A DNA stretch of 21,024 nt from Candidatus Falkowbacteria bacterium (GTDB lineage Bacteria > Patescibacteriota > Patescibacteriia > JACRDY01), in the NCBI GenBank assembly GCA_016218485.1, contig JACRDY010000068.1, positions 1 through 21,024 on the forward strand. The letters are read 5' to 3'. The translations under genes and the position numbers were made by a program. Each line of letters opens with the position of its first letter. The stretch's first letter is position 1. The notes below the pieces were generated by a model. The model had not been told where the DNA came from. It saw nothing but the letters and a program-made list of their open reading frames with translations, and did not search any database. This document shows, in pieces, positions 1-19,796 of the stretch.

Positions 1-402
1 GTAATACAGAGACCTCAAGCGTTATCCGGACTTATTGGGCGTAAAGCGTCCGTAGACGGTTGAGTAAGTCAGTGGTCAAATCTTGGAGCTCAACTCCAAG
101 ACCGCCACTGAAACTGCTCGACTAGAGGCCGGAAGAGGCGAGCGGAATTGCCGGTGTAGGGGTAAAATCCGTTAATATCGGCAAGAACACCAAATGCGAA
201 AGCAGCTCGCTGGTACGGCCCTGACGTTCAGGGACGAAAGCGTGGGTAGCGAATGGGATTAGATACCCCAGTAGTCCACGCCGTAAACGATGGGCACTAG
301 GCATTGGAAGTATCGACCCTTTCAGTGCCGCTTCTAAAAAAGCAAACGCGTTAAGTGCCCCGCCTGGGGAGTACGAGCGCAAGCTTAAAACTCAAAGGAA
401 TA

Positions 403-447
<45 letters not shown>

Positions 448-524
448 GTAAGCGAGGAACCTCACCAAGGCTTGACATCCTAGGAATCCACTGGAAACAG
501 AGGAGTGCCTTCGGGAACCTAGAG

Positions 525-566
<42 letters not shown>

Positions 567-638
567 ACCGTTAAGTCGGGAAACGAGCGCAACCCCTATG
601 TCGTGTTACAAGTGTCACGACAAACTGCCCCCGCCTAA

Positions 639-773
639 GCGTATTTACTTCGTAAATGCGCAAATTACGAATTACAAATTACGAATTATTCAGTATCCAG
701 AAAAATCAAGATACCGAAATTCGTCATTCATAATTACTCATTCGTAATTTGCACGTAGCGAAGCGAAGTGCAT
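639..773 (+). repeat. ~135-nt AT-rich insertion in a terminal 16S helix, just upstream of the GGAAGGTGGGGATGACGTCAAGTC block (E. coli ~1160-1175 hairpin). Built from ATTACGAATT-type words and internally palindromic.
   Basis: The flanking stem CCCCCGCCTAAGCG / CATTTAGGCGGGGG encloses tatttacttcgtaaatgcgcaaattacgaattacaaattacgaatt...attcgtcattcataattactcattcgtaatttgc. The equivalent E. coli loop is ~10 nt. The word AATTACGAATTAC recurs in the intergenic spacer at 9316-9350. Confidence 0.5.
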
Positions 774-782
774 TTAGGCGGG

Positions 783-818
<36 letters not shown>

Positions 819-1005
819 CTTACGCCTTGGGCGACACACGTGCTACAATGGCCGGTACAACGGGTTGCCAAACCGCGAGGTGGAGCCAATCCCTAAAAAC
901 CGGTCTCAGTTCGGATTGAGGTCTGCAACTCGACCTCATGAAGTCGGAATCGCTAGTAAACGCGTATCAGCCATGGCGCGTTGAATACGTTCTCGGGTCT
1001 TGTAC

Positions 1006-2038
1006 TCGGATCGCCTGGCAGCGATAGAAAAAAAGACGTGACCTGCCTCCGTTATAACTACGGCAAGGCCAGGAAATCGTCTACAGCGAATTGGAACGCT
1101 GAAAGCAGAGGGCACGTTTTGTCCGCGAGGACAACACGAAGGGCCCATAAGCATTTTGCAGCTTGAGTCCACGTTATAATAATGAAAGAGGTTGACGACC
1201 CATCTGTGAGTACATGGGGAAGTCATCCAATACCACCAAAGCCCTTTCATTATCGGTGGACCGGAGATGTAAAAAAATGTTTTCTTTCGTAACCCAGGGA
1301 GATCTGGCACGAGTCCTCGGAGGTATCCGCGGGACAGAATTTCTGTTCTATGGTAAACTAACCCCGAGGTAGATTAAGAAGTGATTCTTAGTTAATGCTA
1401 TGCCAGAAGTCTGCAGAGCTCGTAGTACCAATCGCCGTCCATTTAGGCGCAATCCTAAATTACAACCGCCGATTGGGAAGGAGCAAATCCAACAAAAACC
1501 GCTTAATCCGCACTACATTGCGGGATTCATAGATGGCGAGGGATCTTTTTCGGTGAGTATTAATCATCATAAAACCCTCACCAGCGGTATTGAAATTAAA
1601 CCGGAGTTTGAAATAGAGCTTCGAGCTGATGATAGGGAAATTCTTGAGCGCATAGTCGCGACCATTGGCTGCGGAAAAGTCTACGATTGCTCATATGAGC
1701 GTTATGGATGGTTCCCGCATGCCAAACTTAAAGTGACGAGTGCAAAAGATTTAGAGGAAAAACTCTTCCCGTTCATTGATCAATACCCCTTGCAAGCAAA
1801 AAAGCGCCAGGTCTATGCCTTATTTCGCGAGATTGTTCTGATGGTGAGAAGTAAGAAACATCTTAGTGAAGAAGGATTGCAAAAAATTCAGCAACTGCGG
1901 AATGAGATGCGAAAATTTGGCAAAAAACATAATTTTGTTGTCAAATTTAACGCTCAGTTGGAAACCGCCAGGATACGGGAAAACCGTTCGTCCGGTGGTG
2001 TCTGACAATAAGTTAGTAATAATTTATTGCATCAAAAA
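1006..2038 (+). other. Group-I-like intron in the 16S rRNA near E. coli position ~1390 (between GGGYCTTGTAC and ACCGCCCGTC). Exact splice junctions were not resolved.
   Basis: The conserved 16S sequence stops at ...gggtcttgtac (1005) and resumes at accgcccgtcacgtcaagg (2039). The intervening ~1 kb carries a LAGLIDADG ORF, which is typical of rRNA group I introns. Confidence 0.6.
1400..2005 (+). CDS. LAGLIDADG homing endonuclease, single-motif type, intron-encoded
   Basis: A 201-aa ORF with the motif NPHYIAGFIDGEGSFSVSI (LAGLIDADG dodecapeptide with the catalytic acidic residue) in its N-terminal part. It is about the size of I-CreI-like homodimeric enzymes and lies wholly inside the 16S interruption. 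Confidence 0.8.
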   Translation: MPEVCRARSTNRRPFRRNPKLQPPIGKEQIQQKPLNPHYIAGFIDGEGSFSVSINHHKTLTSGIEIKPEFEIELRADDREILERIVATIGCGKVYDCSYERYGWFPHAKLKVTSAKDLEEKLFPFIDQYPLQAKKRQVYALFREIVLMVRSKKHLSEEGLQKIQQLRNEMRKFGKKHNFVVKFNAQLETARIRENRSSGGV

Positions 2039-2548
2039 ACCGCCCGTCACGTCAAGGGAGTCGGTAACACCCAAAGTCCACGTTCGTGGGCAAAGGTGGG
2101 ATCGATGACAGGGACGAAGTCGTAACAAGGCATCCGTAGCGGAAGCTGTGGATGGATCACCTCCTTTCTAAGGAGTAACTTCCCGTCAGGCCATTGGCCT
2201 GACGCGGACATACGTGGTCGGTCGGGTTCGATTTATCGGACTCGTTACTCCGGTTAGTTTGAACATATCCCCGTAACCGGCCGCAAGGTCTCTATGGGGT
2301 AAAGGTTTTTATCACTTTTGAGTCGTTAACAATAAAAAATCATCGGCCGATTCGGCGGATGATTTTTTAGATTCAAGATTTAGGAATTAAGAATTAAGAA
2401 TCCAGTGAACGGTTGTTTGAACATAAACACAACCCCACCCTGTCCCTCCCCCTTATGAATAAGGGGGAGAGACTGGTTCGACCATGGACTTCACTAAATT
2501 ATAATTTTAATAGACAAAAACAATCTTAACTGCTAAATTAGTGATACT

Positions 2549-3115
2549 ATGACCGCAGAAACCATGGACTGGCCGCTGCCGATCGCCGAAAAACAGTTTG
2601 ATAACGCCGCGGCAGTGGTAGCTGGGCTGTATACCATTCCCCGCACCGGCTGGGTGCAGCGCGGGGTGGACAACCCGGAAAGTGTCGGGCAGCATACGGA
2701 TGCGCTCGTTACTTTGGCGCGAGAATTAGGGCCGCAGATAGCCGGGCTGGATCAGAAAAAATTAGAACGAATGCTGCAGATTCACGATTGGCCGGAGGCG
2801 CTGGTTGGTGATCAGGTAGCTTTCAGCTCCACAGAAAAACAACAAAAATTTTTAGTAGAAAGGGCCGCGATGCAAAAAATTTGCGCTGCATTAGGAGACG
2901 AGGGAGCGGAAATTATGAACCTGTGGCTGGAGTACACTGATGGCCAGACGGGTGAAGCAAGTATTGCTAAGCAGCTGGATAAACTGCAGGCACTCATGCA
3001 GGCGACCACGTACGAGCGCGCCGGGCAGACGGTGCGAGCACGTGATTTCGTTCACTACCGAGCAATGATTACGCATCCCTTGCTGCGTCAGATGCTGGCT
3101 GAACTGGAAAAATAG
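2549..3115 (+). CDS. HD-domain phosphohydrolase (YfbR/HDDC2-like 5'-deoxynucleotidase family)
   Basis: A 188-aa ORF with an H...HD...D arrangement: RTGWVQRGV-NPESVGQHTDALVTLA ... QIHDWPEALVGD. Confidence 0.6.
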   Translation: MTAETMDWPLPIAEKQFDNAAAVVAGLYTIPRTGWVQRGVDNPESVGQHTDALVTLARELGPQIAGLDQKKLERMLQIHDWPEALVGDQVAFSSTEKQQKFLVERAAMQKICAALGDEGAEIMNLWLEYTDGQTGEASIAKQLDKLQALMQATTYERAGQTVRARDFVHYRAMITHPLLRQMLAELEK

Positions 3116-3337
3116 TTTTTGAAGTTAAAAAAATCGTTGGCAGTGTGCCGGCGGTTTTTTTAACCAGAGAGATAAGAATTAAGATTAAAGATTTAAGAAT
3201 AAATACACCATTCTTAAATTTTTAATCTTATCCCTTAATTCTCCCGCTACTTGACCAATTACCAATTACCAGTAAGATAAGGGTAGGTTTGTCACTATAC
3301 CGTATAATACGGTGCACCAATAGAGGAGGAGGTCACG

Positions 3338-4612
<1,275 letters not shown>

Positions 4613-4684: not shown

Positions 4685-4854
4685 CTGTTTGGTGGCATCC
4701 CTGCTCGACTCACCCCGCACAATGCGGAGTGGGTGGGTTTTTATTGAATTACTTAAATTCTAAATTCAAAATCCTAAATTCCAAATACTTAAATCATAAA
4801 TTCTAAACACGCAATACCGAGTTTAAGATTTTGGATTTAGGTAGTATGATTCAT

Positions 4855-4911
4855 CCAGCACCTTCCAGAATATCCCGCAGCAAGCTGACGGGATATTCTG
4901 GAAGGTGCTGG
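4855..4911. repeat. Perfect long hairpin / palindromic element, copy 1 of the CCAGCACCTT family
   Basis: ccagcaccttccagaatatcccg-cagcaagctgac-gggatattctggaaggtgctgg, a 23-bp perfect stem. It is itself flanked by an inverted pair of AT-rich word-repeat arms (4745-4800 / 4912-4965). Confidence 0.7.
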
Positions 4912-4990
4912 ATTTATTTAGGATTTTGAATTTTAGGTTTATAATTTAATTCTTAGTTATGGGTAAGTCTCATTCTATAAATTTTCAGAG

Positions 4991-5083
4991 AGCGGGTAGG
5001 GGGAATCGCCAGCTCATCGGCAAAGTCGTGAGCTGATCCGCTAAAGCCCGAAGGGCTATGAGCGGAAACCCCCCTCCAGTTTG
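4991..5083 (-). pseudogene. Partial second copy of the tRNA-Gly 3' portion (anticodon-loop 3' side through the acceptor 3' strand) with a 59-nt structured insertion in the T-loop
   Basis: Minus-strand reading: AAACTGG-AGGGG-GGGGG-TTT[CCGCTCATAGCCCTTCGGGCTTTAGCGGATCAGCTCACGACTTTGCCGATGAGCTGGCG]ATT-CCCCC-TACCCGCT. It matches tRNA-Gly segments on both sides of the insert. The insert has two hairpins, one with a UUCG tetraloop. Confidence 0.5.
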
Positions 5084-5101
5084 CCTGCCCGCCAGAGCCT
5101 C

Positions 5102-5173
5102 AGCGGGTAGGGGGAATTGAACCCCCCTCTCCAGTTTGGAAAACTGGAATAATAACCGCTATACGATACCCGC
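5102..5173 (-). tRNA. tRNA-Gly (anticodon TCC)
   Basis: Reverse complement: GCGGGTA-TC-GTAT-AGCGGTTA-TTAT-T-CCAGT-TTTCCAA-ACTGG-AGAGG-GGGGG-TTCAATT-CCCCC-TACCCGC-T. Cloverleaf with U73 discriminator, closely similar to bacterial tRNA-Gly(UCC). No encoded CCA. Confidence 0.85.
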
Positions 5174-5191
5174 TCAGGCTGAGGCAGGCGG

Positions 5192-5213
5192 GGAAAACTG
5201 GAATAATAATCGC
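5192..5213 (-). pseudogene. Partial copy of the tRNA-Gly D-loop, D-stem 3' strand and anticodon stem/loop up to the anticodon, lying just 5' of the intact tRNA-Gly
   Basis: Minus-strand reading: GCGATTATTATT-CCAGT-TTTCC, against the intact gene GCGGTTATTATT-CCAGT-TTTCC. Together with the 4991-5083 fragment it forms an outer tRNA-Gly-like copy split in the anticodon loop by [spacer + intact tRNA-Gly + spacer]. Confidence 0.45.
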
Positions 5214-5228
5214 TTACCATTATATACA

Positions 5229-5304
5229 TGGTCGGGCCGGCGAGGCTCGAACTCGCGACCTCCTGGTCCCAAACCAGGCGCGCTACCAACTGCGCTACGG
5301 CCCG
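5229..5304 (-). tRNA. tRNA-Pro (anticodon TGG), CCA encoded
   Basis: Reverse complement: CGGGCCG-TA-GCGC-AGTTGGTA-GCGC-G-CCTGG-TTTGGGA-CCAGG-AGGTC-GCGAG-TTCGAGC-CTCGC-CGGCCCG-A-CCA. C1:G72 is typical of tRNA-Pro. Confidence 0.85.
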
Positions 5305-5325
5305 ACCATGTTTTTAATGATGAAA

Positions 5326-5448
5326 GCCGGGACGCGCTTCACCCGCCCAAATTTAGCTCTCATCATTAATGGTATCCGCGATTACCCACCATCGTGTAAT
5401 CAAAACGGACAACGTTTTTGTACCGAGCTAAATTTGGGCGGGTAAACC
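5326..5448 (-). repeat. Copy 1 of a ~125-nt terminally palindromic structured element (candidate ncRNA or MITE), immediately 5' of tRNA-Pro
   Basis: Terminal inverted repeats CACCCGCCCAAATTTAGCTC ... GAGCTAAATTTGGGCGGGTAAACC (~20 bp) enclose internal hairpins (CAAAACG-gacaa-CGTTTTG; GATTAC...GTAATC). Two further copies at 5756-5879 and 6149-6273 show the same organisation. Confidence 0.7.
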
Positions 5449-5465
5449 AACTGCGCTACGGCCCG
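5447..5465 (-). pseudogene. Partial copy of the tRNA-Pro 5' end (acceptor 5' strand through the D-loop), abutting element copy 1
   Basis: Minus-strand reading: CGGGCCGTAGCGCAGTTGG, identical to the first 19 nt of tRNA-Pro, followed directly by the element's TTTACCCGCC end. Confidence 0.5.
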
Positions 5466-5543
5466 TTAATAACAATTAACAGTTAACAATTAACCAGTAA
5501 CAAACAACCAAATATGCTAGTCAATTGTTAAGCGTTAATTTGT

Positions 5544-5640
5544 TAACTGTTAATTGGTGCCGAGGGGCAGAATTGCCCGCTCGTCTTCGCGAGCGGATCC
5601 GCTCAGGCCGAATGGCCATGAGCGGAAACTGCCGACGCTC
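5544..5640 (-). pseudogene. Partial second copy of the tRNA-Phe 3' portion with a ~50-nt structured insertion in the T-loop, and an encoded CCA
   Basis: Minus-strand reading: ...GGCGTC-GGCAG-TT[TCCGCTCATGGCCATTCGGCCTGAGCGGATCCGCTCGCGAAGACGAGCGG]GCAATT-CTGCC-CCTCGGC-A-CCA. The insert shares CCGCTCAT-GCC-TTCGG-C-T-AGCGGATC with the Gly-copy insert. Confidence 0.5.
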
Positions 5641-5662
5641 CCGCCAACTATTCCAGGCAATC

Positions 5663-5734
5663 TGCCGGGGGGCAGAATTGAACTGCCGACGCCATGCTCT
5701 TCAGGCATGCGCTCTACCACTGAGCTACCCCGGC
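5663..5734 (-). tRNA. tRNA-Phe (anticodon GAA)
   Basis: Reverse complement: GCCGGGG-TA-GCTC-AGTGGTA-GAGC-G-CATGC-CTGAAGA-GCATG-GCGTC-GGCAG-TTCAATT-CTGCC-CCCCGGC-A. No encoded CCA. It is flanked by the inverted leader/trailer GCAATCT...AGATTGC. Confidence 0.85.
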
Positions 5735-5755
5735 AGATTGCAAATTATAGTTGTA

Positions 5756-5879
5756 GGCGGGACGCTCTTCACCCGCCCAAATTTAGCTCTAGTAATTAAT
5801 GGTATCTGTGACTCTCTCACGCGCGTGTAATCCAAGCAGATAACGCTTTTGTGCCGAGCTAAATTTAGGCGGGTAAACC
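5756..5879 (-). repeat. Copy 2 of the ~125-nt element, immediately 5' of tRNA-Phe
   Basis: Same terminal inverted repeats (CACCCGCCCAAATTTAGCTC...GAGCTAAATTTAGGCGGGTAAACC). The interior is divergent, but the internal hairpin is kept by different base pairs (AAGC/GCTT versus AAAACG/CGTTTT in copy 1). Confidence 0.7.
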
Positions 5880-5918
5880 AGCCCCGAAGGGGCCCCTTTG
5901 GGGCTGAGCTACCTCGGC
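5880..5918 (-). pseudogene. GC-rich double hairpin plus a 15-nt fragment matching the 5' end of a tRNA-Phe variant
   Basis: Minus-strand reading: GCCGAGGTAGCTCAG-CCCCAAAGGGGCCCCTTCGGGGCTGG. GCCGAGG is exactly complementary to the CCTCGGC acceptor 3' strand of the partial Phe 3' copy at 5544-5640, and not to that of the intact tRNA-Phe (GCCGGGG/CCCCGGC). Confidence 0.45.
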
Positions 5919-6066: not shown

Positions 6067-6140
6067 TGCGCGTACTTGGATTTGAACCAAGGACCTCGTC
6101 ATTATCAGTGACGCGCTCTAACCAACTGAGCTATACGCGC
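6067..6140 (-). tRNA. tRNA-Ile (anticodon GAT)
   Basis: Reverse complement: GCGCGTA-TA-GCTC-AGTTGGTTA-GAGC-G-CGTCA-CTGATAA-TGACG-AGGTC-CTTGG-TTCAAAT-CCAAG-TACGCGC-A. No encoded CCA. Confidence 0.85.
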
Positions 6141-6148
6141 ATATTGCT

Positions 6149-6273
6149 GCGGGGTGAACGCTCTTCACCCGCCCAAATTTAGCCTTAGTAATTAAGGGTA
6201 ACCGCGATTACTCACCATCGTGTAATCTAAGCGGACAACCTTTTTGTACCGAGCTAAATTTAGGCGGGTAAAC
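6149..6273 (-). repeat. Copy 3 of the ~125-nt element, immediately 5' of tRNA-Ile
   Basis: The terminal inverted repeats and interior are highly similar to copy 1. It is followed at 6274-6313 by the same GC double hairpin and a 5' tRNA fragment GGACGTATAGCTCAG, which pairs with the TACGCCC strand of the partial Ile 3' copy. Confidence 0.7.
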
Positions 6274-6420
6274 CAGCCCCGAAGGGGCCCCTTTGGGGCT
6301 GAGCTATACGTCCGTCATCTAGAGTTTACTGCTAGGGTAGATAAAAATAACTACTCGGCAGTCTAATACAAAACGGTAAAAAAAGCAAGGTACGAGCAGG
6401 CTGATTTAGTCTTAATTTGA

Positions 6421-6449
6421 TTGATTAATTTAGATATTTCGGCTAGTAT
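6421..6449 (+). promoter_or_regulatory. Sigma70-like promoter for mnmA
   Basis: TTGATT, 17-nt spacer, TAGTAT, ending ~15 nt upstream of the ATG at 6464. Confidence 0.45.
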
Positions 6450-6463
6450 GCTAGAGCAGTTTT

Positions 6464-7564
6464 ATGACTCAAAAGAATAAGAAACCCACAGTCATCGTGG
6501 CCATGTCCGGCGGCGTGGATTCGTCTGTCGCGGCCGCTTTACTACAGCGGCAGGGCTATGACGTGCGCGGCGTGCATATCAAGATGTGGTCGGATCCGGA
6601 TATCCCCTGTTTGTTTACTTTTGACCGGATTGACGCCATGAAAGTAGCGATCCAGCTCGGCATTCCTTTCACCACTTGGGATCTGACGCGCGAATACCGC
6701 AGCGCGGTCGTGGACTACATGATCCGCGAGTTTAAGGCCGGTCGGACGCCCAACCCGGACGTGATGTGTAATAGCGAGATCAAGTTCGGGGTGTTTTTGG
6801 ATAAAGTTTTAAAAACGGGCGCGGAGTATTTGGCGACGGGGCATTATGTGAAAAAAGCGCAAAGCGCAAAGCGCAAAGCACAGAGCCAGTCCACGATACA
6901 AAAATTGTATATCGCGGCGGATGGGAATAAGGATCAGAGCTATTTTCTCTGGCGGCTGAATCAGCAGCAGCTGCGGCATAGCCTGTTTCCCCTGGGTGGT
7001 CTGACTAAGCCGCAGGTGCGAGTCCTCGCCAAACAGTTTAAGCTGCCTACCGCTGACAAGCCGGACTCGCAGGGTATCTGCTTCATCGGCGAGATTAACC
7101 TCAAGGATTTCCTGGAACACTACATCCCCCGCCGTCCGGGCACAATCGTGACCACGGACGGCCGCGTACTCGGCCATCATGAGGGTCTCCCCTTCTATAC
7201 CATTGGTCAGCGTGAGGGGCTGGGTCTGGGCGGTGGCATCCCCTACTATGTCGTTGCCAAAAATTTTAAAACCAATCAGCTGATTGTTGGCAGCCGGGGC
7301 GCGGCTGAACTGTTTCTGCCGAGTTTGCGGTTCACCGCCGCCAATTGGCTACTTGGCAGCGAGCCGAAACTGCCTCTGATCTGCCTGGCGCGTATCCGCT
7401 ACCGTCAGCCGCTGGAGCGTTGTCGGGTCAAACGCATCAGCGGTCGCGGCATTCGGGCGATCTATCAAGCGAAATTTACCGAGCCGCAGCGGGCCATTAC
7501 TCCCGGTCAGTCCATTGTGTTGTACAGGAGCGAGGAGATGATCGGGGGCGGGATTATTATTTAG
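6464..7564 (+). CDS. mnmA: tRNA-specific 2-thiouridylase (tRNA (5-methylaminomethyl-2-thiouridylate)-methyltransferase)
   Basis: A 366-aa ORF. PP-loop VAMSGGVDSSV near the N-terminus. Collinear with MnmA throughout (DQSYFL, GICFIGE, ITPGQS..GGGII C-terminus). It contains an ~8-codon in-frame insertion encoded by GCGCAAAGCGCAAAGCGCAAAGCACAGAGC at ~6856-6890. Confidence 0.85.
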   Translation: MTQKNKKPTVIVAMSGGVDSSVAAALLQRQGYDVRGVHIKMWSDPDIPCLFTFDRIDAMKVAIQLGIPFTTWDLTREYRSAVVDYMIREFKAGRTPNPDVMCNSEIKFGVFLDKVLKTGAEYLATGHYVKKAQSAKRKAQSQSTIQKLYIAADGNKDQSYFLWRLNQQQLRHSLFPLGGLTKPQVRVLAKQFKLPTADKPDSQGICFIGEINLKDFLEHYIPRRPGTIVTTDGRVLGHHEGLPFYTIGQREGLGLGGGIPYYVVAKNFKTNQLIVGSRGAAELFLPSLRFTAANWLLGSEPKLPLICLARIRYRQPLERCRVKRISGRGIRAIYQAKFTEPQRAITPGQSIVLYRSEEMIGGGIII

Positions 7565-7700
7565 TCCTTAGTCCATAGTCCCTAGTCCTTAGTCCATAGT
7601 CCTTATTCCATAGTCCTTAGCGTATAGTTTTAGCGTGAAAGCCTCCACTAAGTACTAGGGACTAAGGACTATGGACTATGTATAGGACTATGTACTATTT
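7564..7700. repeat. Palindromic spacer built from TAGTCC/TAGGAC-type 6-9-nt words
   Basis: gtccttagtccatagtccctagtccttagtccatagtcc...actagggactaaggactatggactatgtataggactatg. The two arms are reverse complements of each other. Confidence 0.55.
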
Positions 7701-7817
7701 CCTCTAATTTTGCTATACTAATACTATAGCTATCAGGACATTGACGCTTTTCCAGTCGTGTGCTAACCTATTGGCAAACAAAAGCCCTATGATACGGGTT
7801 TTTTATTTTAAGTCAGT

Positions 7818-7920
7818 CCAGCACCTTTCATCATTTTTATCTAAAATTTGCCATTATATTAGCTAAAATAAGATTAATTATGGTTGATTTATTTTAGATA
7901 AAAATGATGAAAGGTGCTGG
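7818..7920. repeat. Long perfect hairpin, copy 2 of the CCAGCACCTT family, with an AT-rich interior; it ends exactly at the start codon of the next gene
   Basis: ccagcacctttcatcatttttatctaaaat...attttagataaaaatgatgaaaggtgctgg, an ~30-bp perfect stem. Confidence 0.65.
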
Positions 7921-8523
7921 ATGGCTAAAAATATGCAAAAATCACGGATATTGCAAAAACTACGTAAATATTGGAGAAAATTAGGCGCTTTTTTGGTGCA
8001 CATGCATGTGCGTCGGGTTGAATTGGCTGTTTTTGCTGTAATTTTATTTGAATTTTCTTTTCCTCAAGTATCATTAGCTCAAGAATTGCAGGCTCCGGCC
8101 AGCTATCAGACCGAGAGCGTGATGTATGAAACAGTGATTCGGGATGCCGCTCCGGTTATCAGCGACGCGGCTGTATTGGCTGATTTTAATAATAGTCTGC
8201 CAATGGCGGCTGATCGTCAGCCGACCCGTACCATCTGGGTGACGGTAACGGCCTACTCCAGCACTCCGGATCAGACTGACGACAGCCCGTGTATTACGGC
8301 TAACGGGTTTGATGTCTGTGAACACGGGCAGGAGGACGTGATCGCGGCCAATTTTTTGCCCTTTGGTACCACGGTCAAAATGCCGGAGTATTTCGGCGAC
8401 ACAGTCTTTACTGTGCAGGATCGGATGAACGCGCGCTACTACAGCCGCGTTGATGTCTGGATGCAGAGCCGGGAGGCGGCTAAACAATTCGGCGTGCGGA
8501 CGCTTAAGGTTGAGGTTTATTAG
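7921..8523 (+). CDS. Secreted 3D-domain protein (MltA-like fold, cell-wall binding/remodelling; related to YocH/YuiC C-terminal domains)
   Basis: An N-terminal hydrophobic signal/anchor (LAVFAVILFEFSFPQVSLA). The C-terminal region has VTVTAYSSTPDQTDDSPCITANG ... VIAANFLPFGT ... FTVQDRMN...VDVWM, with three spaced Asp residues. The true start may be the internal ATG at 7933. Confidence 0.6.
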   Translation: MAKNMQKSRILQKLRKYWRKLGAFLVHMHVRRVELAVFAVILFEFSFPQVSLAQELQAPASYQTESVMYETVIRDAAPVISDAAVLADFNNSLPMAADRQPTRTIWVTVTAYSSTPDQTDDSPCITANGFDVCEHGQEDVIAANFLPFGTTVKMPEYFGDTVFTVQDRMNARYYSRVDVWMQSREAAKQFGVRTLKVEVY

Positions 8524-8587
8524 CTACAAATAGCGAATAGCACATAGTCAATAGTACATAGCGCTTGAGAAGGGCGTTTTTTTATAT

Positions 8588-8700
8588 GGCTACATTATCA
8601 CATTGCTACATTGCCAAATTGCTAAATTGTCACACTGTTGTGTGGGTTATTTAGCAATTTGGCAATGTAACAGTTTAACAATTTAACAATGTAGCAATTT
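8588..8700. repeat. Large palindrome of ATTGC/ACATTG-type words
   Basis: A perfect 17-bp inverted repeat, ttgccaaattgctaaat / atttagcaatttggcaa, sits inside longer symmetric arms (ctacattatcacattgctacattgcc ... ggcaatgtaacagtttaacaatttaacaatgtagc). Confidence 0.55.
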
Positions 8701-8745
8701 TGCTTTTCCCTTTTACTCCCGCGTGAAATACGGTATAATATTTTT

Positions 8746-9246
8746 ATGCAGCTATTTGTTAAAAAATTCACCAAAAACGGCCTGAAAATAGGTTTTTTTG
8801 TGGTGGCGCTGTGTTTGATGTTGGCGCTGGCATTGCCGGTGCTGGCCGTTACTGGACAGGGTGGTGACACGGGGCAGGGGGATACGAGTGGGCAGGGTAA
8901 TGACACCGGATCGGGTGGTGATACGGGACAAAATGAAGGGGGTAAGGCCAGTATTATATCCCTGGAAGATCCATTGAATGTAAAGACGGATGCAACAGGG
9001 CCATTGTCCAACATAGCTATTGTGCAGGAAATAATTCTCCGTTTGGCTAAATTCCTGATCGCGCCCATCGGCGCTATTGCTTTCCTCTGTTTGGTGATTG
9101 GCGGGTTTTATATGATTTTTTCCGGGGGTAATGAGGAGCGGGTTAAACAGGGCAAAGATATTATTGTCTGGACCGTGGTGGGGATTATCGTGATTTTTAG
9201 CGCCTACGCGGTGATTAATTTTGTGCTGACGGCGGTGAGAGGATAG
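8746..9246 (+). CDS. Secreted small membrane protein with TrbC/VirB2-like conjugative-pilin topology (signal peptide, Gly/Asp/Thr-rich low-complexity segment, two C-terminal TM helices)
   Basis: A 166-aa ORF. Signal peptide FFVVALCLMLALALPVLAVTG, then repeats QGGDTGQGDTSGQGNDTGSGGDTGQNEGG, then two hydrophobic helices separated by GGNEERVKQGKD. TATAAT at 8733-8742. The family assignment rests on topology only. Confidence 0.35.
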   Translation: MQLFVKKFTKNGLKIGFFVVALCLMLALALPVLAVTGQGGDTGQGDTSGQGNDTGSGGDTGQNEGGKASIISLEDPLNVKTDATGPLSNIAIVQEIILRLAKFLIAPIGAIAFLCLVIGGFYMIFSGGNEERVKQGKDIIVWTVVGIIVIFSAYAVINFVLTAVRG

Positions 9247-9478
9247 CACAAAGCTCAGAGCACAAAGCGCAGAGTTCAGAGCGCAAAGCACGTTTCAAAA
9301 GAGCGTCTTTTTTTAATTAGGAATTACTAATTACGAATTACGAATGAGATTACCAAAGAGCGGCTTTTGGCAGGCTAGGAACATGTAACATGTAGCATAT
9401 AGCATGTAACTCCATACAAGCTACACGCTACATGCTACAAGATTTTCTCTCATTTTAAACACTTTTATATACTTTTGA

Positions 9479-9507
9479 TTGACTTTTTATTTAAAATATG
9501 CTATATT
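9479..9507 (+). promoter_or_regulatory. Sigma70-like promoter followed by a ~175-nt structured leader upstream of the 9685 gene
   Basis: TTGACT, 17-nt spacer, TATATT. The leader contains hairpins CACACTGCAGAAGTGTG, CAACCGAA..TTCGGTTG and CCCCGCAAGGGG (GNRA loop). Confidence 0.5.
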
Positions 9508-9684
9508 GACAAATCACACTGCAGAAGTGTGTTTGTATACAGAACCTTGAAAACGGCGTTTATGACCAATAAGCGCTTACAAATATGCAACTCAAGTACA
9601 ACCGAAGAGTCAGTTTTCGGTTGAGTGAAATAGTACAGTCAACAATTCCCCGCAAGGGGTGCAACGGTTTTCGGAGGTGTCATC

Positions 9685-10698
9685 ATGATGCGATTGATTG
9701 AGTCTCTTGATGCGAAAGTCCAAAAGTGGTTCGGCATTCAGCTGATCAAGCTGTGGGACGCGAAAAGCCAAGGCAATCCCCCAGTCATTGTTCGGCTGGA
9801 TGAAAAGCACGAGATCGTTTTCCGATCCGTCTTCGGCAGTGACGACCACACCTTCAGTGGTTACCGGATAGAAGAACCCACCTATTGCTGGTGGGTCCCG
9901 GTCTTCCGTGACGAATACGTCGCCACGATTTTTACCGGGGAGTACTCCGCACCGTTCAATACGCAAGGATTTGAGGCCAACTCCGGCGTGGAAAATATAA
10001 ATGACCTGGAAAAGGAATTCAAGGGCATGATGGGCGCTGCCGCGTGGGAGAAGGCTCGTAAGGAACTGGAAGAGGTGATACAGCGTCGTCTGAAAGGCGG
10101 CGCGCCGAAAGTGACGATATACGTCTCCGGTACGTTGCAGCTCGATGTTGAAGGCATCATCAACGCCAGCGCGAAATACGCCACTCGCTTGTTCAAGAGC
10201 GGCAACGCGGATCAGATCATCAACGGCATGATGGAGCTCGCGCTCGCCCATGTCTTCGGCAGCATGATGCTGGAATCAGCCCTGATCCTCGCGGGTCATC
10301 GGCGGGAAAAGACGATCAAGCAGCTGATGAACTTGATGAATTTCGGCTGCCTGGAAGTGGACGAAGGTGGCGAGCCGATCGAGGCGACGCGGGTCACGGG
10401 TATCAAAGGTCTGCGGTACTACGGTCTCCGTCTGGTGCAGTTCGGTATCAAGCGGATTGTGCCGCCGGAGGAGATTGAGGAAGCGATCCGTCAGGAAGAA
10501 AGCGCCGAACGAGAGCGCGTGGCCGATAAAGCCAAGGCTGATGTCGCGGCAATGATTCACGATCTTCCAGCGGCGTTGGCGTTTACGGTTATGCACCTGA
10601 CCGATGCCCAAGTCAAAGGCCCGGGTCTCGAAATTTCAGTCAGTAAGAATAAGAAGGGAAAGTCCGGCGGTGCAGCAGCGAGTGACTCCACCGATTAA
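9685..10698 (+). CDS. Hypothetical soluble protein, 337 aa, no recognisable domain
   Basis: Long ORF with a GGAGGTG RBS 6 nt upstream and coding-like composition. No motif recognised by eye. Confidence 0.6.
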   Translation: MMRLIESLDAKVQKWFGIQLIKLWDAKSQGNPPVIVRLDEKHEIVFRSVFGSDDHTFSGYRIEEPTYCWWVPVFRDEYVATIFTGEYSAPFNTQGFEANSGVENINDLEKEFKGMMGAAAWEKARKELEEVIQRRLKGGAPKVTIYVSGTLQLDVEGIINASAKYATRLFKSGNADQIINGMMELALAHVFGSMMLESALILAGHRREKTIKQLMNLMNFGCLEVDEGGEPIEATRVTGIKGLRYYGLRLVQFGIKRIVPPEEIEEAIRQEESAERERVADKAKADVAAMIHDLPAALAFTVMHLTDAQVKGPGLEISVSKNKKGKSGGAAASDSTD

Positions 10699-10754
10699 CA
10701 CCAATTCGGGTCGCGGGCTTAAACCCCCGCGACCCGCTCAATCAGGAGTAGTCA

Positions 10755-12132: not shown

Positions 12133-12597
12133 ATGGGCAACACTAATCAACAATTTGAATTATTAGCCATTAAACAAGATTTGGCGGAATTTCGTCAAGA
12201 AAATAACGAACTGTTTTTGGCTATTAAGCAAGATCTAGATCGGATGGCCACCAAGGACGATCTCCAAGGCGTGAAGGACGATCTCCAAGGCGTGAAGGAC
12301 GATCTCCAAGGCGTGAAGGACGATCTCCAAGGCGTGAAGAAGGACTTACATAGGTTCGCCACCAAAGACGACCTATTAGCATTCGCCACCAAAGACGACA
12401 TGGAACATTTTCGGGATGAATTAAAAGAAGAAATTCATCAGACATTTGATGTGCTAATTACCGGGCAGGATAAAATAGTGAAGATACTGATGGATCAGAA
12501 AGCGGAAAACGCGGCCAATCAATCAGCGCACGGACGTTTCCAGACCACGCTGGATACCCACGAACGGAGAATAGGTGTTTTGGAAAATCCTGTTTAG
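12133..12597 (+). CDS. Coiled-coil repeat protein with KDDLQGV heptad repeats
   Basis: A 154-aa ORF with ATKDDLQGV-(KDDLQGV)x3-KKDLHRFATKDDLLAFATKDDMEHF. The heptad periodicity suggests a coiled coil. Confidence 0.6.
   Translation: MGNTNQQFELLAIKQDLAEFRQENNELFLAIKQDLDRMATKDDLQGVKDDLQGVKDDLQGVKDDLQGVKKDLHRFATKDDLLAFATKDDMEHFRDELKEEIHQTFDVLITGQDKIVKILMDQKAENAANQSAHGRFQTTLDTHERRIGVLENPV
12253..12336 (+). repeat. Perfect 4 x 21-nt tandem repeat (aaggacgatctccaaggcgtg) inside the 12133 CDS
   Basis: Four identical consecutive units encoding KDDLQGV. Degenerate units follow (aagaaggacttacat..., accaaagacgacctatta...). Confidence 0.9.
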
Positions 12598-12654: not shown

Positions 12655-12656
12655 AT

Positions 12657-12713
12657 CCAGCACCTTTCAGAATACCCCGTCAGCTTGCCGTGGGGTATGC
12701 TGAAAGGTGCTGG
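12657..12713. repeat. Perfect long hairpin, copy 3 of the CCAGCACCTT family, immediately upstream of polA
   Basis: ccagcacctttcagaataccccg-tcagcttgcc-gtggggtatgctgaaaggtgctgg. It is homologous to copy 1 (4855-4911) with compensatory substitutions on both arms. Confidence 0.7.
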
Positions 12714-12750
12714 ATTTTATTACCCCAAAAATGGTAAAATAGGCCTATCT

Positions 12751-15549: not shown

Positions 15550-15655
15550 GTTCATAAGTTCATTAGTTGGTAAGTTTATTAGTTTATTAGTTGGAAAGTT
15601 TAAAAGTTAACCCCGTCGGATCGCTCTGGCGGGGTCTTGCTGTTCGTGCGGGGGT

Positions 15656-15769
15656 TCATGGCAGGACGCCCAGGACGTTGCAGATGGCGTTGGCCACGAA
15701 TGTGAAGACGATCGCGCCGATGGCGGTTTGCCACGCCATCACGAACATGGATTGCGTGAGATGATGCAT
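15656..15769 (-). CDS. Possible small hydrophobic peptide (37 aa), immediately downstream of the 15779 lipoprotein gene
   Basis: Minus-strand ATG at 15769: MHHLTQSMFVMAWQTAIGAIVFTFVANAICNVLGVLP-stop. It is followed by the hairpin CCCCGCCAGAGCGATCCGACGGGG and a T-rich tract. No clear RBS. It is below the ORF-track length cutoff. Confidence 0.25.
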   Translation of the reverse strand: MHHLTQSMFVMAWQTAIGAIVFTFVANAICNVLGVLP

Positions 15770-15778
15770 GGGTTGCCC

Positions 15779-16192
15779 TTACTCGCAGACGCGGTCGCGT
15801 GCCTTGATGGCCTCGGCCAGTTTGGCTTCCGTGAGGAGACGCTGCTTGTCCAGGCGCGTGGCCTCGCTGTAGAGCCGCTGCCACTCCAGCTCGATGGCGG
15901 GGTAGTTGGCGTTGTATCGCGACGAGGTGATGTCCTTGGCGACTTGGTAGTCGGCCAATTTGAGGTCCGCCGCTTTGGCGGAATCCTTGGCTTTGTCAGT
16001 GAGGTCGTCCAGGTCGCCCTGGAGTTTGTCGGCCTGCTTGTCGGCCGCGGTGCAGGCGGCCTTGGTGTTCGCGACCGACTCTTTTCCGATCATGTTGTCC
16101 ATGGCCACAGCCTGCTGGTTGGTCGCGGCGCAGCCGTTGACGACGATTCCCAGGCAGCACATCAGAACGAACAGAACGAGCGCGCGTTTCAT
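15779..16192 (-). CDS. Small lipoprotein, paralog A (signal peptide, lipobox VNGC, coiled-coil body, C-terminal Cys)
   Basis: MKRALVLFVLMCCLGIVVNGCAATNQQA.... GGAGGAGG RBS. A conserved 5'UTR hairpin CGTCCAATCCCGGACG sits directly upstream of the RBS. Confidence 0.7.
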   Translation of the reverse strand: MKRALVLFVLMCCLGIVVNGCAATNQQAVAMDNMIGKESVANTKAACTAADKQADKLQGDLDDLTDKAKDSAKAADLKLADYQVAKDITSSRYNANYPAIELEWQRLYSEATRLDKQRLLTEAKLAEAIKARDRVCE

Positions 16193-16379
16193 CGGTTTCT
16201 TCCTCCTCCGTCCGGGATTGGACGGTTATGTTTGCGATTGTGTATCTTATGACATTTTCGTCGGGCTGTCAATTATGGTTGAGATAAAAATAATGTCTGG
16301 AAAATAGGGCTTTTAGAAATGGTTGAGCCCCGCCGGAACGATCCGATGGGGCTCTGTTGCGCGCTGATTCGCGATGGAG

Positions 16380-16688
16380 TCATTTCTGACTCCGTTCGCA
16401 GTAGGTATTGCGCATGGCTTGCGCGATTTCCAGGTTGAGGTGGAGCCGGTCTGACTGTTGTGCGAGCTCGACCGCAGCCGGACCAGACTTGGTCGAGCGT
16501 AGGCGCTGCTCAGTCACCGCGATCTCGTGGCTGATGTTAGCGATCGACTGCTCGGCCTCGGCGCACTTTGCCGGGTCGGCTACGTCCTGCATCCCCAGCA
16601 GATGCGGGATTGTCAGGGCGTTGGGGTTGGTGGCCGCGCAGGCCACCGTGAGGCATAGTACGGTGACGGTCAGGATGGCCTTAATCAC
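16380..16688 (-). CDS. Small lipoprotein, paralog B, with a GTG start
   Basis: The ORF-track 179-aa ORF is an over-extension. AAAGGAGGACGACC-GTG gives M-IKAILTVTVLCLTVACAATNPNA... (lipobox VAC), about 102 aa. Its start overlaps the stop of the upstream paralog by 8 nt. Body and C-terminal Cys are homologous to paralogs A and C. Confidence 0.6.
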   Translation of the reverse strand: MIKAILTVTVLCLTVACAATNPNALTIPHLLGMQDVADPAKCAEAEQSIANISHEIAVTEQRLRSTKSGPAAVELAQQSDRLHLNLEIAQAMRNTYCERSQK

Positions 16689-17109
16689 GGTCGTCCTCCT
16701 TTGACGGGCAGTAGTATGTGCGCCGTCGGGTGGCTTCAGTGAGAGCTTTGCTCGTGTTTTGTTGATCGACCGCCAGTGAGTTGATGGCGGTCTCGAGCCG
16801 AGTCCACTGGGCTGAGAGAGCGGCGTTTTCCTCCGTATCATCCTCGCCCCGCAGGGTTTTCTGGAGGCTGACTCGGAAGTAGCCCTTGATCTCGGCTTGC
16901 GTCTTTTTGATCGCCGCATCGAGCTTCTCGAGCGTGCTTGTCAGCGCGCTGACGTCCTGGCGCGCTTTGGCGCACTCGGCCTCCCTGTCGGCGACCCACT
17001 CATGGCCGAGGAGCATATCCAGCTCGGCGGCGTTCTGGTTCTTGGCCGCGCAGCCACTGGCGAGGCACGCCAGCACCAGCAGTGCCAGAACGAATGATGT
17101 CTGTTTCAT
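16681..17109 (-). CDS. Small lipoprotein, paralog C
   Basis: MKQTSFVLALLVLACLASGCAAKNQNA.... GGAGGA RBS. The same conserved upstream hairpin as paralog A (CGTCCAATCCCGGACG-A-GGAGGA). Confidence 0.7.
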   Translation of the reverse strand: MKQTSFVLALLVLACLASGCAAKNQNAAELDMLLGHEWVADREAECAKARQDVSALTSTLEKLDAAIKKTQAEIKGYFRVSLQKTLRGEDDTEENAALSAQWTRLETAINSLAVDQQNTSKALTEATRRRTYYCPSKEDDRD

Positions 17110-17436
17110 TGCTTGTATTCCTCCTCGTCCGGGATTGGACGATTGTATTGGCGATTTTTGACTTTACCTTATTTCCACCTCCCTGTCAATGGCATTAGAC
17201 TAAAAAAATACGGCAAGCTAATGGGGCGGCTCACCGTGGTTTCCTGGAAAGGAATGGAGGGGGTGTTTTGAGGTATGGTGCTGTGGCAGCGGTCTCTGCC
17301 GGGGCGGCTTGCAGCTCATCTTCGGAAATATTGCGATGAGCGCCGCCGATCTCTGCCTGTTGGTCTGGCGGCAGATTTGGCGGGGTAGCAGTGAGGATGG
17401 TGTACACATGGCCAGTGCCATTGAGCCGACTGCTGA

Positions 17437-18030: not shown

Positions 18031-18096
18031 TGCCTTCTCCTTGAGCGTGAAAGGGTTATGTTCTTTGTACCATACTAGGGGAAAAGGTCAAGATTA

Positions 18097-18167
18097 GACA
18101 CAGATTACACAGATAAACACAGATGGCACAGATCCGTGTGATCTGTGATTATCTGTGTAATCTGTGT
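18097..18167. repeat. Near-perfect ~70-bp palindrome of CACAGAT-type words, abutting the stop codon of the 18168 gene
   Basis: agacacagattacacagataaacacagatggcacagatc|cgtgtgatctgtgattatctgtgtaatctgtgtct. A second copy, 68/71 identical, is at 20861-20931. Confidence 0.8.
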
Positions 18168-19796
18168 CTAATAGATTTCCTTCTGGTAACACTCCTCACA
18201 GTACACCCGTTCCGGCCGCTCCGGCGCGTACGTCGTCTCAAATTCATTGGTGCAGCCCGCGTTCATGCAGGCGCGGTGGTACAATGTGCGCGGGTTGCGT
18301 TGCTGGAGTCGCGCCAAATGGCGACAGTCAAAGCACTGGCGGGCGATTGGCAGGCCGTGGCTGCGGTAGAATTTCAATTCCTGAGGAATAATTTTGTAGT
18401 CTTTTTTGCAAGTAGTGCAGGCCAGGATTTCGTTGAGAATGGCGTCTGTCACTTGGGTAATGTCAGCTGGTATGTCCGTCAGTGTTTCTCGGCCAAAGGT
18501 GCCCGGCAGCTCATTCTGCCAGAACCAGCCTTTACTCTGGACCTCATCTTTGGTCAGGGGAAAGTACTCCCGCGCGATGGTTTCGTTATAGCAGAACGGG
18601 GACAGGCGGATCGGGAAAAATTCGCCGTACTGGTCAGCTCGCTTCATCTCCTCAATAATCTTTTCTTTCAGTTGCTTATATTCGGTTTCGGAATATTTTT
18701 TGTTCAAAATTTGGTAGGAGCCGTGTTTGAGTCCGGTGCAGCCGAATAAATTTTGACTATAGAAACACTGCCACGAGTAGCTCGTGAATGAGCAGTCCCA
18801 GCAGGCCACCGTCGCAATTTGATATTTACTGTTGACGATGCTGATACAGTTGTAGCTCATTTCGGCTTTTGGCGAATAATTAATATCACTGACCGCTGAC
18901 GCGCCTCGGGGCAGGTTCCAGACGTAGAAGCAGTCTTCCAACTCTTGTGATTCAAAGCAGTGCGCGGCGTTGCGACAGTTATAGAGGTAGTCGCCGGTTG
19001 AGTTCTCGCAGTGGCGGATGCGCGCATATGGCCGCGGCACGGTCAGGCTGAATTGGTAGAATGTTTGATAAAATTTTTCCGGATTAGCTTTGGCTTCCGC
19101 TAACACTTTCGCGCATTCTTCCTTAGTCGCCGGTTTATTGAAAATATAATTTTCTTTGTGGCGCAGGCCGACGCAGCCAATGCAATTCTGGCAGCTGATG
19201 CAATCATAGCAAAAGGCCAGTTCAGATGAATTTTCGCAGTCATTACAATAAATGCCGGAGAAAAGATTTTGGCAGTGGACGCACTGGTAGCAGTTTTGCA
19301 GATCAAAGCCTTGCGCGCAGTCCATGGAGTCAAACGAGTTATTAACAAAATAGGAATAGTAAATATTCTCCCCGGTAACGCCGGAGATGCACATATAGGA
19401 ATCTTTGTAGTAGACCGAGTGCGGGCAGTAGTCGCTGTTTTCGCCGTGCGAGATGATCAGCGCCAGGTGCGGAGTTTTCAGTAGCAGCTCTTTGAATTGT
19501 TCCAGAAATGGTTTAGCTGGATCATAGTCCAGCGCTGGCGCTTGCCACCTGTCGCTCCACCAGCACTCCGGGCAGTACTGGAGGTAGGGTTTGTCTTTGG
19601 CGTAAAAAGAGACAATAGCTTTTTTGCAGAGATCACATTGGCGAGTATAGAGCATTCGTTCATTACGCCAGGCACAGCGAGATCGCTGCCGGCAGTCCGG
19701 GCAGCTTTTTGGCTCGGGCAGATTCAGTTTCACGAAGAAGTCTTTCTCGGCGCTCGTCAGGTCAAATTGTGCGTTGCAGTGTTGGCAGGTGGTCAT
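18168..19796 (-). CDS. Cysteine-rich multi-zinc-ribbon protein, 542 aa with roughly 60 Cys, and homologous N- and C-terminal double-CxxC modules
   Basis: N-terminus C5xxC8...FxxLNLPEPKSC32PDC35RQRSRCAWRNERMLYTRQC54DLC57...YC75PEC78WW. C-terminus CTTCKKDYKIIPQELKFYRSHGLPIARQCFDCRHLARLQQRNPRTLYHRACMNAGC...YCEECY. Both share the skeleton CxxC-F-LP-CxxCR-R-RN-R-LY-R-C-C-YC-EC. The centre has ~20-aa repeats of the form YNC-x3-C-x2-S-x2-L-x2-C. Confidence 0.7.
   Translation of the reverse strand: MTTCQHCNAQFDLTSAEKDFFVKLNLPEPKSCPDCRQRSRCAWRNERMLYTRQCDLCKKAIVSFYAKDKPYLQYCPECWWSDRWQAPALDYDPAKPFLEQFKELLLKTPHLALIISHGENSDYCPHSVYYKDSYMCISGVTGENIYYSYFVNNSFDSMDCAQGFDLQNCYQCVHCQNLFSGIYCNDCENSSELAFCYDCISCQNCIGCVGLRHKENYIFNKPATKEECAKVLAEAKANPEKFYQTFYQFSLTVPRPYARIRHCENSTGDYLYNCRNAAHCFESQELEDCFYVWNLPRGASAVSDINYSPKAEMSYNCISIVNSKYQIATVACWDCSFTSYSWQCFYSQNLFGCTGLKHGSYQILNKKYSETEYKQLKEKIIEEMKRADQYGEFFPIRLSPFCYNETIAREYFPLTKDEVQSKGWFWQNELPGTFGRETLTDIPADITQVTDAILNEILACTTCKKDYKIIPQELKFYRSHGLPIARQCFDCRHLARLQQRNPRTLYHRACMNAGCTNEFETTYAPERPERVYCEECYQKEIY

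Follow-up and report, generated by a model that had tools for sequence, protein, structure and literature searches.

Insertions shorter than 200 bp that contain no open reading frame (ORF) and are not introns are known in the 16S ribosomal RNA (rRNA) genes of candidate phyla radiation (CPR) bacteria, where they are suspected to be intervening sequences (IVSs) of the RNase III type (PMC11270868), and short uncharacterized insertions in CPR rRNA genes were noted by Brown et al. 2015, as cited in PMC9297842. Here we describe an object of the same class in the same group of organisms, an AT-rich extension of helix 40 (h40) in the 16S rRNA gene on a 21,024-nt contig of Candidatus Falkowbacteria bacterium (JACRDY010000068.1, assembly GCA_016218485.1, positions 1 to 21,024 of the forward strand), the whole of which we call the window. 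The distal part of the extension is a palindrome of tandem heptamers, and arrays of the same architecture recur in the spacers of the contig. As far as their available text goes, the surveys of CPR rRNA genes classify insertions by intron type and ORF and do not report a heptamer-palindrome anatomy, its turnover at strain level or a link to spacer arrays. The main text of PMC11270868 has no word beginning with "repeat," and its insertion sites 16IS1-10 are positioned only in figures, with h40 unconfirmed among them. The repeat anatomy seen here appears to be undescribed so far.

Four further systems resemble this extension in part. Bacterial rRNA IVSs, which lie in helices 25 and 45 of 23S rRNA in Salmonella, Campylobacter, Coxiella, and others and more rarely in 16S rRNA, likewise replace the tip of a conserved helix with an AT-richer stem-loop, and they too are sporadic among close relatives, with horizontal or ectopic spread suspected (PMC4990558 and PMC11270868). 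The present case differs from them in its site, 16S h40, in its tandem heptamers, and in that excision is only a candidate fate. Eukaryotic rRNA expansion segments are said by Hancock and Dover to evolve by "compensatory slippage"; the likeness lies in simple motifs on one arm that have complementary counterparts on the other and in a solvent-exposed, insertion-tolerant helix. The insertion site at h39/h40 of Escherichia coli also adjoins the eukaryotic segment es9 (PMC2441807). Unlike the eukaryotic segments, the h40 case is bacterial, has a 7-nt period and a much faster turnover, and belongs to a repeat class that is found in spacers and coding DNA as well.

Rickettsia palindromic elements are families of near-identical full-length copies that lie between genes and inside RNA and protein genes. 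With these the window has in common palindromic repeats at tolerated positions, including arrays in mnmA and polA, but its units are site-specific and there is no full-length copy of the h40 insert elsewhere in the 21 kb. The short tandemly repeated repetitive (STRR) sequences of cyanobacteria are heptanucleotide tandem repeats. The TAACTGA repeats of the Beggiatoaceae are 7-nt tandem direct repeats too (PMC4679880), and both resemble the arrays described here in being 7-nt tandem direct repeats, mostly intergenic, and of obscure origin. Those systems, however, draw on a single genome-specific unit or very few, repeated directly at many loci and frequently beside start codons, whereas the window has 13 different period-7 units in 21 kb, usually with an inverted array, and one of them lies in rRNA.

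The Rfam model for bacterial small-subunit rRNA (RF00177) matches positions 1-1021 of the window with 846 bits over model positions 520-1533. In this alignment the helix CUGCCCCCGC / GGGGGAGG ends in a loop of 145 nt (635-779), as against 3 nt in the model. We take the enlarged helix to be h40 of E. coli (~1161-1175) from the sequence that follows it, GGAGGAAGGUGGGGAUGACGUCAAGUC, and from the established numbering. An initial annotation, made from the sequence alone, had placed an AT-rich insertion of ~135 nt at 639-773, in a stem equated with the E. coli hairpin at ~1160-1175. The insertion is real and its coordinates are correct to within a few bases, with the stem strings at 628-641/771-784, and the Rfam alignment and the flanking sequence identify the stem as h40. 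Relatives with an unexpanded helix have the same basal stem closing a 4-nt loop, as in GCCCCCGCAAGGGGGA. The window segment from 625 to 790 folds as a single imperfect hairpin of -67.5 kcal/mol (200 shuffles gave -30.7 ± 3.7; z = -10.0), and its GC content is 0.33 in 636-776 and 0.29 in 660-752, compared with 0.53 in the flanking 16S sequence. From the 5' to the 3' side, it is made up of the following parts:

628..635, plus strand: 5' strand of the conserved basal stem of h40, CCCCCGCC, which aligns with the model's h40 stem
636..659, plus strand: proximal non-repeat 5' part, TAAGCGTATTTACTTCGTAAATGC, with no repeat call by Tandem Repeats Finder (TRF)
660..689, plus strand: 5' arm, tandem heptamers AATTACG / AATTACA / AATTACG / AATTAT
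690..715, plus strand: hairpin tip, a small GUAUC...GAUAC stem with an A-rich loop in the minimum-free-energy structure
716..752, plus strand: 3' arm, a degenerate complement of the heptamer array, with minus-strand pattern matches at 716-728, 723-735, and 737-749
753..776, plus strand: proximal non-repeat 3' part, ACGTAGCGAAGCGAAGTGCATTTA, whose CGTAGC..GCGAAG aligns with the two nearest relatives, L077 and L080
777..784, plus strand: 3' strand of the same basal stem, GGCGGGGG, from the Rfam alignment and the fold

At 663-688 TRF reports (AATTACG)x3.7, of period 7. Reverse-complemented, the 3' arm gives AATTACG AATGAGT AATTATG AATGACG AATTT. The arms pair between 660-686 and 726-752 with 85% complementarity in an inverted-repeat scan. 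The distal ~93 nt (660-752) are therefore a heptamer palindrome, and repeats are absent from the proximal ~25 nt of either side; the description of the insert as built from spacer-type words holds for this central part but not for 636-659 and 753-776. The insert prolongs the h40 stem, and neither a direct repeat (target-site duplication) nor defined termini flank 636-776. On the minus strand of the insert an Rfam match to mir-70 reached 30 bits where the gathering score is 90, and was set aside as a generic hairpin match. Intron families in the Rfam covariance models gave no match in 635-779 even at E <= 1. Given this lack of a model match, the plain repeat hairpin, and the absence of conservation among relatives, the segment is best read as a lineage-specific hypervariable extension of h40, of the IVS or expansion-segment kind, and not as an intron.

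To place the extension among related CPR 16S genes, we used loci reached through homologues of a LAGLIDADG protein encoded in an intron of the same gene (L005-L023) and 65 further loci (L024-L088) from one metagenome scan with the pattern AACGAGCGCAACCC-N{20,50}-ACTGCCCCCGC. In the 65 metagenomic genes h40 ranges from unexpanded to ~330 nt longer. Over these and several loci from metagenome-assembled genomes, the distance from AACGAGCGCAACCC to GGAAGG runs from 45 nt (where h40 is GCCCCCGCAAGGGGGA) to 374 nt; in the window it is 190. Every expanded helix folds as a hairpin, with z from -5 to -15. Autocorrelation is strongest at lag 7 in 11 of the 15 distinct h40 helices of 100-180 nt, each time with a different unit. 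The heptamers below were read from the sequences, and most of them were also called by TRF:

L086, h40 unit: TAGTGTG
L026, h40 unit: TTAGTCT
L045, h40 unit: GATTAGN
L073, h40 unit: GATTTAA
L053, h40 unit: AAATCCG
L030, h40 unit: GATTTAT
L035, h40 unit: CAATTTN
L075, h40 unit: AGAAAGT

In L086, arrays also occur in the 5' region of the 16S gene (2009-2093), ~90-180 nt into the gene.

Of the two nearest relatives, both among the exceptions to lag 7, L077 is 91% identical over 851 nt and 93-94% in the h40 flanks, and L080 is 87% identical and 92-94% in these flanks. Both have a GC-rich extension of ~100 nt in h40, and they have in common with the window the base GCCTA(A/C)GC and the 3' motif CGTAGC..GCGAAG. 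The start of the proximal 5' part, GCCTAAGC, aligns with GCCTACGC in L077 and L080 and with GCCTAAG in L036, L044, L061, and L065. The base of the extension, partly homologous to theirs, is thus inherited and does not stem from an isolated insertion event, and the heptamer part is new. A similar layering is seen elsewhere, as L051, L026, and L086 have a short extension in common that is capped by different array hairpins in L026 and L086. Turnover of the tips is fast enough to distinguish genes with near-identical flanks. L085 and L030 are 99.5-100% identical in the flanks and wholly different in the tips (h40 stretches of 206 and 159 nt), L086 and L026 are 100% identical in the flanks and again wholly different in the tips (177 and 146 nt), and L065 and L082, with flanks of 99.8% identity upstream and 98.2% downstream, also differ in their tips (374 and 162 nt). 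Expansion of h40 is hence widespread among relatives, with a homologous base in L077 and L080 and with tips that are unrelated, variable, and often of period 7. Such sporadic presence and variation among close relatives is what is expected of an IVS.

The initial annotation had further stated that the words of the insert fill the intergenic spacers and occur in one at 9316-9350. Counting from TRF output and direct reading, we found tandem arrays of 7-9-nt units in 10 of the 15 spacers of at least 150 nt, at a density of ~3.8 per kb of non-coding DNA as against ~0.6 per kb within coding sequence. The window has 30 short-period arrays, and 14 of them are of period 7; these 14 comprise 13 different canonical units, most of them paired with inverted arrays. 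Most arrays in the window have an inverted partner and would form a hairpin, an anatomy identical to that of the distal part of the h40 insert. What the spacers and the insert share, then, is mainly an architecture: the many units are 7-9 nt long, and the identical unit is found in one spacer. There a TRF array confirms the match. The principal spacer arrays are these:

9315..9348, plus strand: direct array AATTAGG AATTACT AATTACG AATTACG AATGAG; TRF period 7, (AATTACG)x4.4 at 9315-9345
3167..3243: spacer hairpin, (AAGAATT/AAGATTA)n with an inverted array
5470..5555: hairpin in a spacer that separates tRNA genes, (TAACAAT)n with an inverted array
7561..7698: spacer hairpin, (TTAGTCC)x8.6 with inverted (ACTAAGG/ACTATGG)n
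8583..8703: spacer hairpin of 8-nt units, (GCTACATT)n with inverted (ATTTAGCA)n
9380..9441: spacer hairpin, (AACATGT)n with (TACAAGC)n
18093..18172: palindrome of 9-nt units, (ACACAGATN)n, with a second copy at 20857-20927

All but the first were delimited by TRF and the inverted-repeat scan. The spacer array at 9315-9348 has two exact 13-mers in common with the insert, AATTACGAATTAC, which lies in the 5' arm, and AATTACGAATGAG, which occurs in the complementary strand of the 3' arm, and the variant AATTACG-AATGAG also occurs in both. A search for the word family within the window gave 13 matches to AATTACGAATTAC with up to 2 mismatches, compared with 0.57 expected and with none of 100 shuffles reaching this number; 6 of the 13 lie inside the insert itself. 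There is no second copy of the h40 insert in the 21 kb, which is ~2% of a genome assumed to have ~1 Mb, a size typical of CPR bacteria, and the longest common word is 13 nt.

The same class of array enters protein genes. (AAAGCGC)n stands in frame in mnmA (6854-6881), where MnmA has six residues more than a solved homologue, and the unit recurs in the spacer at 9243-9291. (AAATTCT)n is found in the spacer at 4755-4823 and, in frame, in the linker of polA (13682-13760), and an 8-nt array occurs twice in polA (13396-13431 and 13912-13947), each copy encoding EIKKLRNKEI. A perfect 21-nt repeat in 4.1 copies (12253-12339) encodes KDDLQGV four times in the ORF at 12133-12597.

Whether the tip of h40 and the spacers share units by chance or by copying was examined across loci. 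When arrays from different loci are compared in pairs, their canonical period-7 units are identical in 1.3% of cases, and h40 units match arrays of their own locus in 2 of 42 comparisons, as against 4 of 1128 for other loci. In a longest-shared-word test of the h40 tip against its own locus, 3 of 12 loci (L053, L054, and L080) beat every cross-locus control; the window was equalled by 1 of 11 controls, and the remaining loci had no own-locus excess. L013, with 84% 16S identity and an unexpanded h40, has (AATTACG)n/(CGTAATT)n hairpins in the spacers between tRNA genes. In its tRNA cluster (2660-3370) three tRNA-tRNA spacers between 2824 and 3300 each hold a heptamer-array hairpin, and an apparent tRNA (~2663-2900) is seemingly interrupted by another complete tRNA gene. 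We had at one stage considered (AATTACG)n a specific, widely conserved signal, on the strength of 72 stretches in IMG/VR, and dropped the idea when control units also proved common.

The most direct evidence comes from L053. Its 23S gene (6124-10734) has at least 5 insertions, of which 3 are array hairpins (at model positions ~224-232, ~583, and ~1893-1901); the others include a 112-nt insert at model ~1764 and a group I intron near model ~1943. The insert of 126 nt in the hairpin loop at ~1893-1901 contains (GAAATCC)n and has an 18-mer in common with the 16S h40 of the same locus. The array hairpins at ~224-232 and ~583 (the helix-25 region), each ~190 nt, show a mean column identity of 85%, which exceeds 90% outside one 45-nt indel, and the third hairpin has ~34 nt of terminal sequence in common with these two. 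An intergenic position for the L053 arrays was ruled out, as Rfam places them inside the 23S gene, and what they document is accordingly sharing between rRNA loops and not between spacer and rRNA. In this relative we thus have direct evidence, at the level of sequence, that array hairpins were copied between rRNA loops.

Taking these observations together, we consider it probable that the window carries a hypervariable h40 extension whose base is inherited and whose tip derives from a genome-wide process that generates or copies repeats. The initial annotation had offered a choice between a genome-wide repeat colonizing a tolerant rRNA loop and an expansion segment or IVS; the data support a hybrid, with the inherited base as the expansion and a tip of the spacer type; no discrete element like those of Rickettsia, with full-length copies or a target duplication, is seen in the 21 kb. 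A process at the DNA level would make or copy short-period arrays together with an inverted partner, possibly through replication slippage, intrastrand template switching at hairpins, ectopic copying between arrays, or some combination of these. The resulting palindromes would persist at tolerated sites, of which the tip of h40, on the solvent side of the 30S head, may be one.

Several observations weigh against this explanation. The unit match concerns one spacer, and its probability by chance is ~15% by our own arithmetic (1.3% x 13 other period-7 arrays). Heptamer arrays of arbitrary unit are common in IMG/VR, with 24 cases of (AATTAGC)n, 27 of (AAATCCG)n, and 7 of (TTAGTCC)n, and identity of the unit is for this reason supportive but not decisive. 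Heptamers are missing from the h40 of both nearest relatives, L077 and L080. The identical flanks in the turnover pairs are short (86-414 nt), lie in conserved 16S sequence, and come from metagenome assemblies, and the genome is represented by 21 kb. Finally, the window insert lacks an RNA-level signature that is seen in the group as a whole. Of 25 distinct expanded h40 helices, 21 fold more stably as the rRNA-sense strand than as the antisense strand (Wilcoxon p = 3e-4), with a mean difference of 6.7 kcal/mol that comes chiefly from G-U pairs, which suggests that pairing in the transcript matters in this group; the window insert is one of the four exceptions, with -71.0 kcal/mol for the antisense and -66.6 kcal/mol for the sense strand. 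The better antisense fold might loosely fit a young palindrome formed at the DNA level.

What becomes of the hairpin in the transcript may follow one of two courses. It could be cut by a double-strand-specific RNase in the fashion of a classical IVS, leaving a 16S rRNA in two pieces, or it could protrude from the 16S rRNA as an expansion segment. Most CPR rRNA insertions are reported to be absent from transcripts (PMC9297842, citing Brown et al. 2015), and E. coli carrying insertion i15 at h39/h40 (positions 1153-1162) grows with a wild-type doubling time (PMC2441807). Judged by its position, the tip of h40 is a plausible solvent-exposed, insertion-tolerant site. We lean slightly towards removal of the hairpin from the rRNA over its retention.

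Two other explanations deserve fuller consideration, and we regard each as unlikely, to much the same degree. According to the first, the extension is an ordinary lineage-specific expansion segment that grew in place, and its likeness to the spacer reflects AT-rich, slippage-prone sequence with a word shared by chance. The unrelated h40 expansions of many relatives, the homologous base in L077 and L080, the chance level of the unit match, and the wide occurrence of heptamer arrays with arbitrary units all agree with it. Growth in place would not, however, readily account for period 7 in 11 of 15 independent helices, for the excess of own-locus unit matches over those with other loci, for the AATTACG-AATGAG variant in the spacer as well, for the wholesale exchange of tips between near-identical 16S genes, or for near-identical array hairpins of ~190 nt at two sites in the L053 23S gene. 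The initial annotation had set its proposal against just this case, a homologous expansion of unrelated sequence in close relatives with chance similarity of words; the expansion is indeed homologous at its base, but the array anatomy and the period of 7 speak against chance.

The second explanation holds that a discrete non-autonomous mobile element, similar to a miniature inverted-repeat transposable element or to a Rickettsia palindromic element, transposed into the loop of h40. Transposition would explain why L053 has two near-identical hairpins in different 23S helices and a third with related ends, why one of two near-identical 16S genes can have a tip that the other lacks or replaces with a different one, and why array words lie inside mnmA and polA; the 9-mer palindrome of the window also occurs twice, at 97% identity. 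Against it, the window has no second copy of the insert beyond 13-nt words and no target-site duplication or termini at 636/776, the units vary from site to site as those of a transposon family would not, and no transposase is linked. An artefact in which metagenome assembly joined a spacer repeat into the 16S gene is highly improbable, for although repeats and conserved rRNA are typical chimera sites and the end of the contig falls within a repeat, the h40 stem is intact and complementary, the insert occupies precisely its loop and prolongs it, and the same architecture recurs at the same site in more than 10 independent assemblies, made in different projects. That the segment is a small self-splicing intron, or some other RNA with a catalytic role or a defined structure, is scarcely credible; CPR 16S genes are rich in introns and this one has an intron at 1008-2038, but the segment is a plain simple-repeat hairpin that matches no intron family and is unconserved in relatives.

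The gene that carries the extension is represented by its 3' two-thirds (1-2165), with an interruption of ~1 kb, and ends with GGATCACCTCCTT (2154-2166). Its exon boundary was derived from intronless relatives that read CTTGTACTC directly followed by ACCGCCCGTC:

1..1007, plus strand: 16S exon 1, model position 520 to ~1397 (Rfam RF00177), with the 5' end cut by the contig end
1008-2038: first insertion of the 16S gene, an intervening sequence of ~1,031 nt that separates E. coli positions 1397 and 1398

The intron has a weak match to group II domains D1-D4 (1370-1483, 48 bits) and holds a single-domain LAGLIDADG_1 ORF at 1400-2005. It corresponds to the known CPR site "16IS9 / position 1400" (Tsurumaki et al. 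2024, PMC11270868). Helix 39 (596-625) is far shorter than in the bacterial model, with ~17 model positions deleted in the alignment, in agreement with the reduction of surface helices reported for CPR rRNA (PMC9297842). Downstream of the 16S gene (2166-4612) lie an HD-domain gene and purD in place of a 23S gene, so the 16S and 23S genes are unlinked. Other genes in the window encode a pilin of the type IV secretion system type, a TrmB-like regulator, PolA, and MnmA, consistent with CPR Candidatus Falkowbacteria.

The best non-self homologues of PurD are 54% identical, and those with names belong to Desulfobacterota or Syntrophaceae; one scan of genome contigs that started from PurD yielded nothing but loci of proteobacterial and Desulfobacterota-like type, at 48% identity, and thereby no 16S genes of relatives. 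The purD gene looks like a horizontal acquisition, which would be unusual for a CPR genome. An exact-protein look-up with MnmA returned only a 1.4-kb Logan contig. The tRNA region holds an element of ~135-150 nt in three copies (5316-5467, 5746-5911, and 6142-6306; 80-91% identical), placed directly upstream of the minus-strand genes for tRNA-Pro, tRNA-Phe, and tRNA-Ile; it has a long stem CACCCGCCCAAATTTAGC...GCTAAATTTRGGCGGGTAAACCA and matches no Rfam family at the gathering threshold. Inverted repeats of 22-30 nt with 80-91% complementarity bracket tRNA-Gly (5080-5196), tRNA-Pro (5218-5319), and tRNA-Phe (5645-5753) and look like long processing stems.

Three spacers (4853-4913, 7817-7921, and 12655-12715) hold palindromes of a family separate from the heptamer arrays, in which the ends, ATCCAGCACCTTYCA...TGAAAGGTGCTGGAT, are conserved and the centres vary. 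A direct repeat of ~170 nt, 97% identical between 18092-18269 and 20856-21024 and beginning with the 9-mer palindrome, flanks a cysteine-rich ORF of 542 residues and the TrmB-like gene; its second copy runs into the contig end, and the assembly therefore probably broke in a multi-copy repeat. The region ~15600-18100 has a GC content of 0.56-0.59, a strongly negative AT skew, and only unannotated ORFs, two of which were tested and had no Pfam matches; by composition it may be foreign DNA.

The cataloguing of CPR rRNA insertions has centred on introns that carry homing endonucleases, and the short ones without an ORF have been left as "uncharacterized." The h40 case gives one class of these short inserts an anatomy, a heptamer array with its inverted array capping an inherited extension, and adds to it a site, a tempo at which near-identical 16S genes differ, and a link to repeats in spacers and protein genes. 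If general, it would define a length-variable, strain-resolving region of 16S rRNA that affects amplicon primers, chimera filters, rRNA-based binning, and alignment masks; it would also offer a natural system for the growth of rRNA helices in bacteria, parallel to eukaryotic expansion segments, and a handle on the long-unexplained preference of some prokaryotic genomes for 7-nt tandem repeats. More tentatively, as an idea that we hold to be less likely than not, some CPR bacteria may possess a rapid process that acts on DNA, generates or duplicates tandem-heptamer palindromes, and prefers hairpin tips and tolerated sites, among them helix loops of 16S and 23S rRNA, tRNA and mRNA spacers, and protein linkers. 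Such a process would amount either to non-autonomous repeat elements of a new class or to a mechanism of hairpin-directed templated insertion, and h40 would then be a hypervariable marker at strain level inside the most conserved gene.

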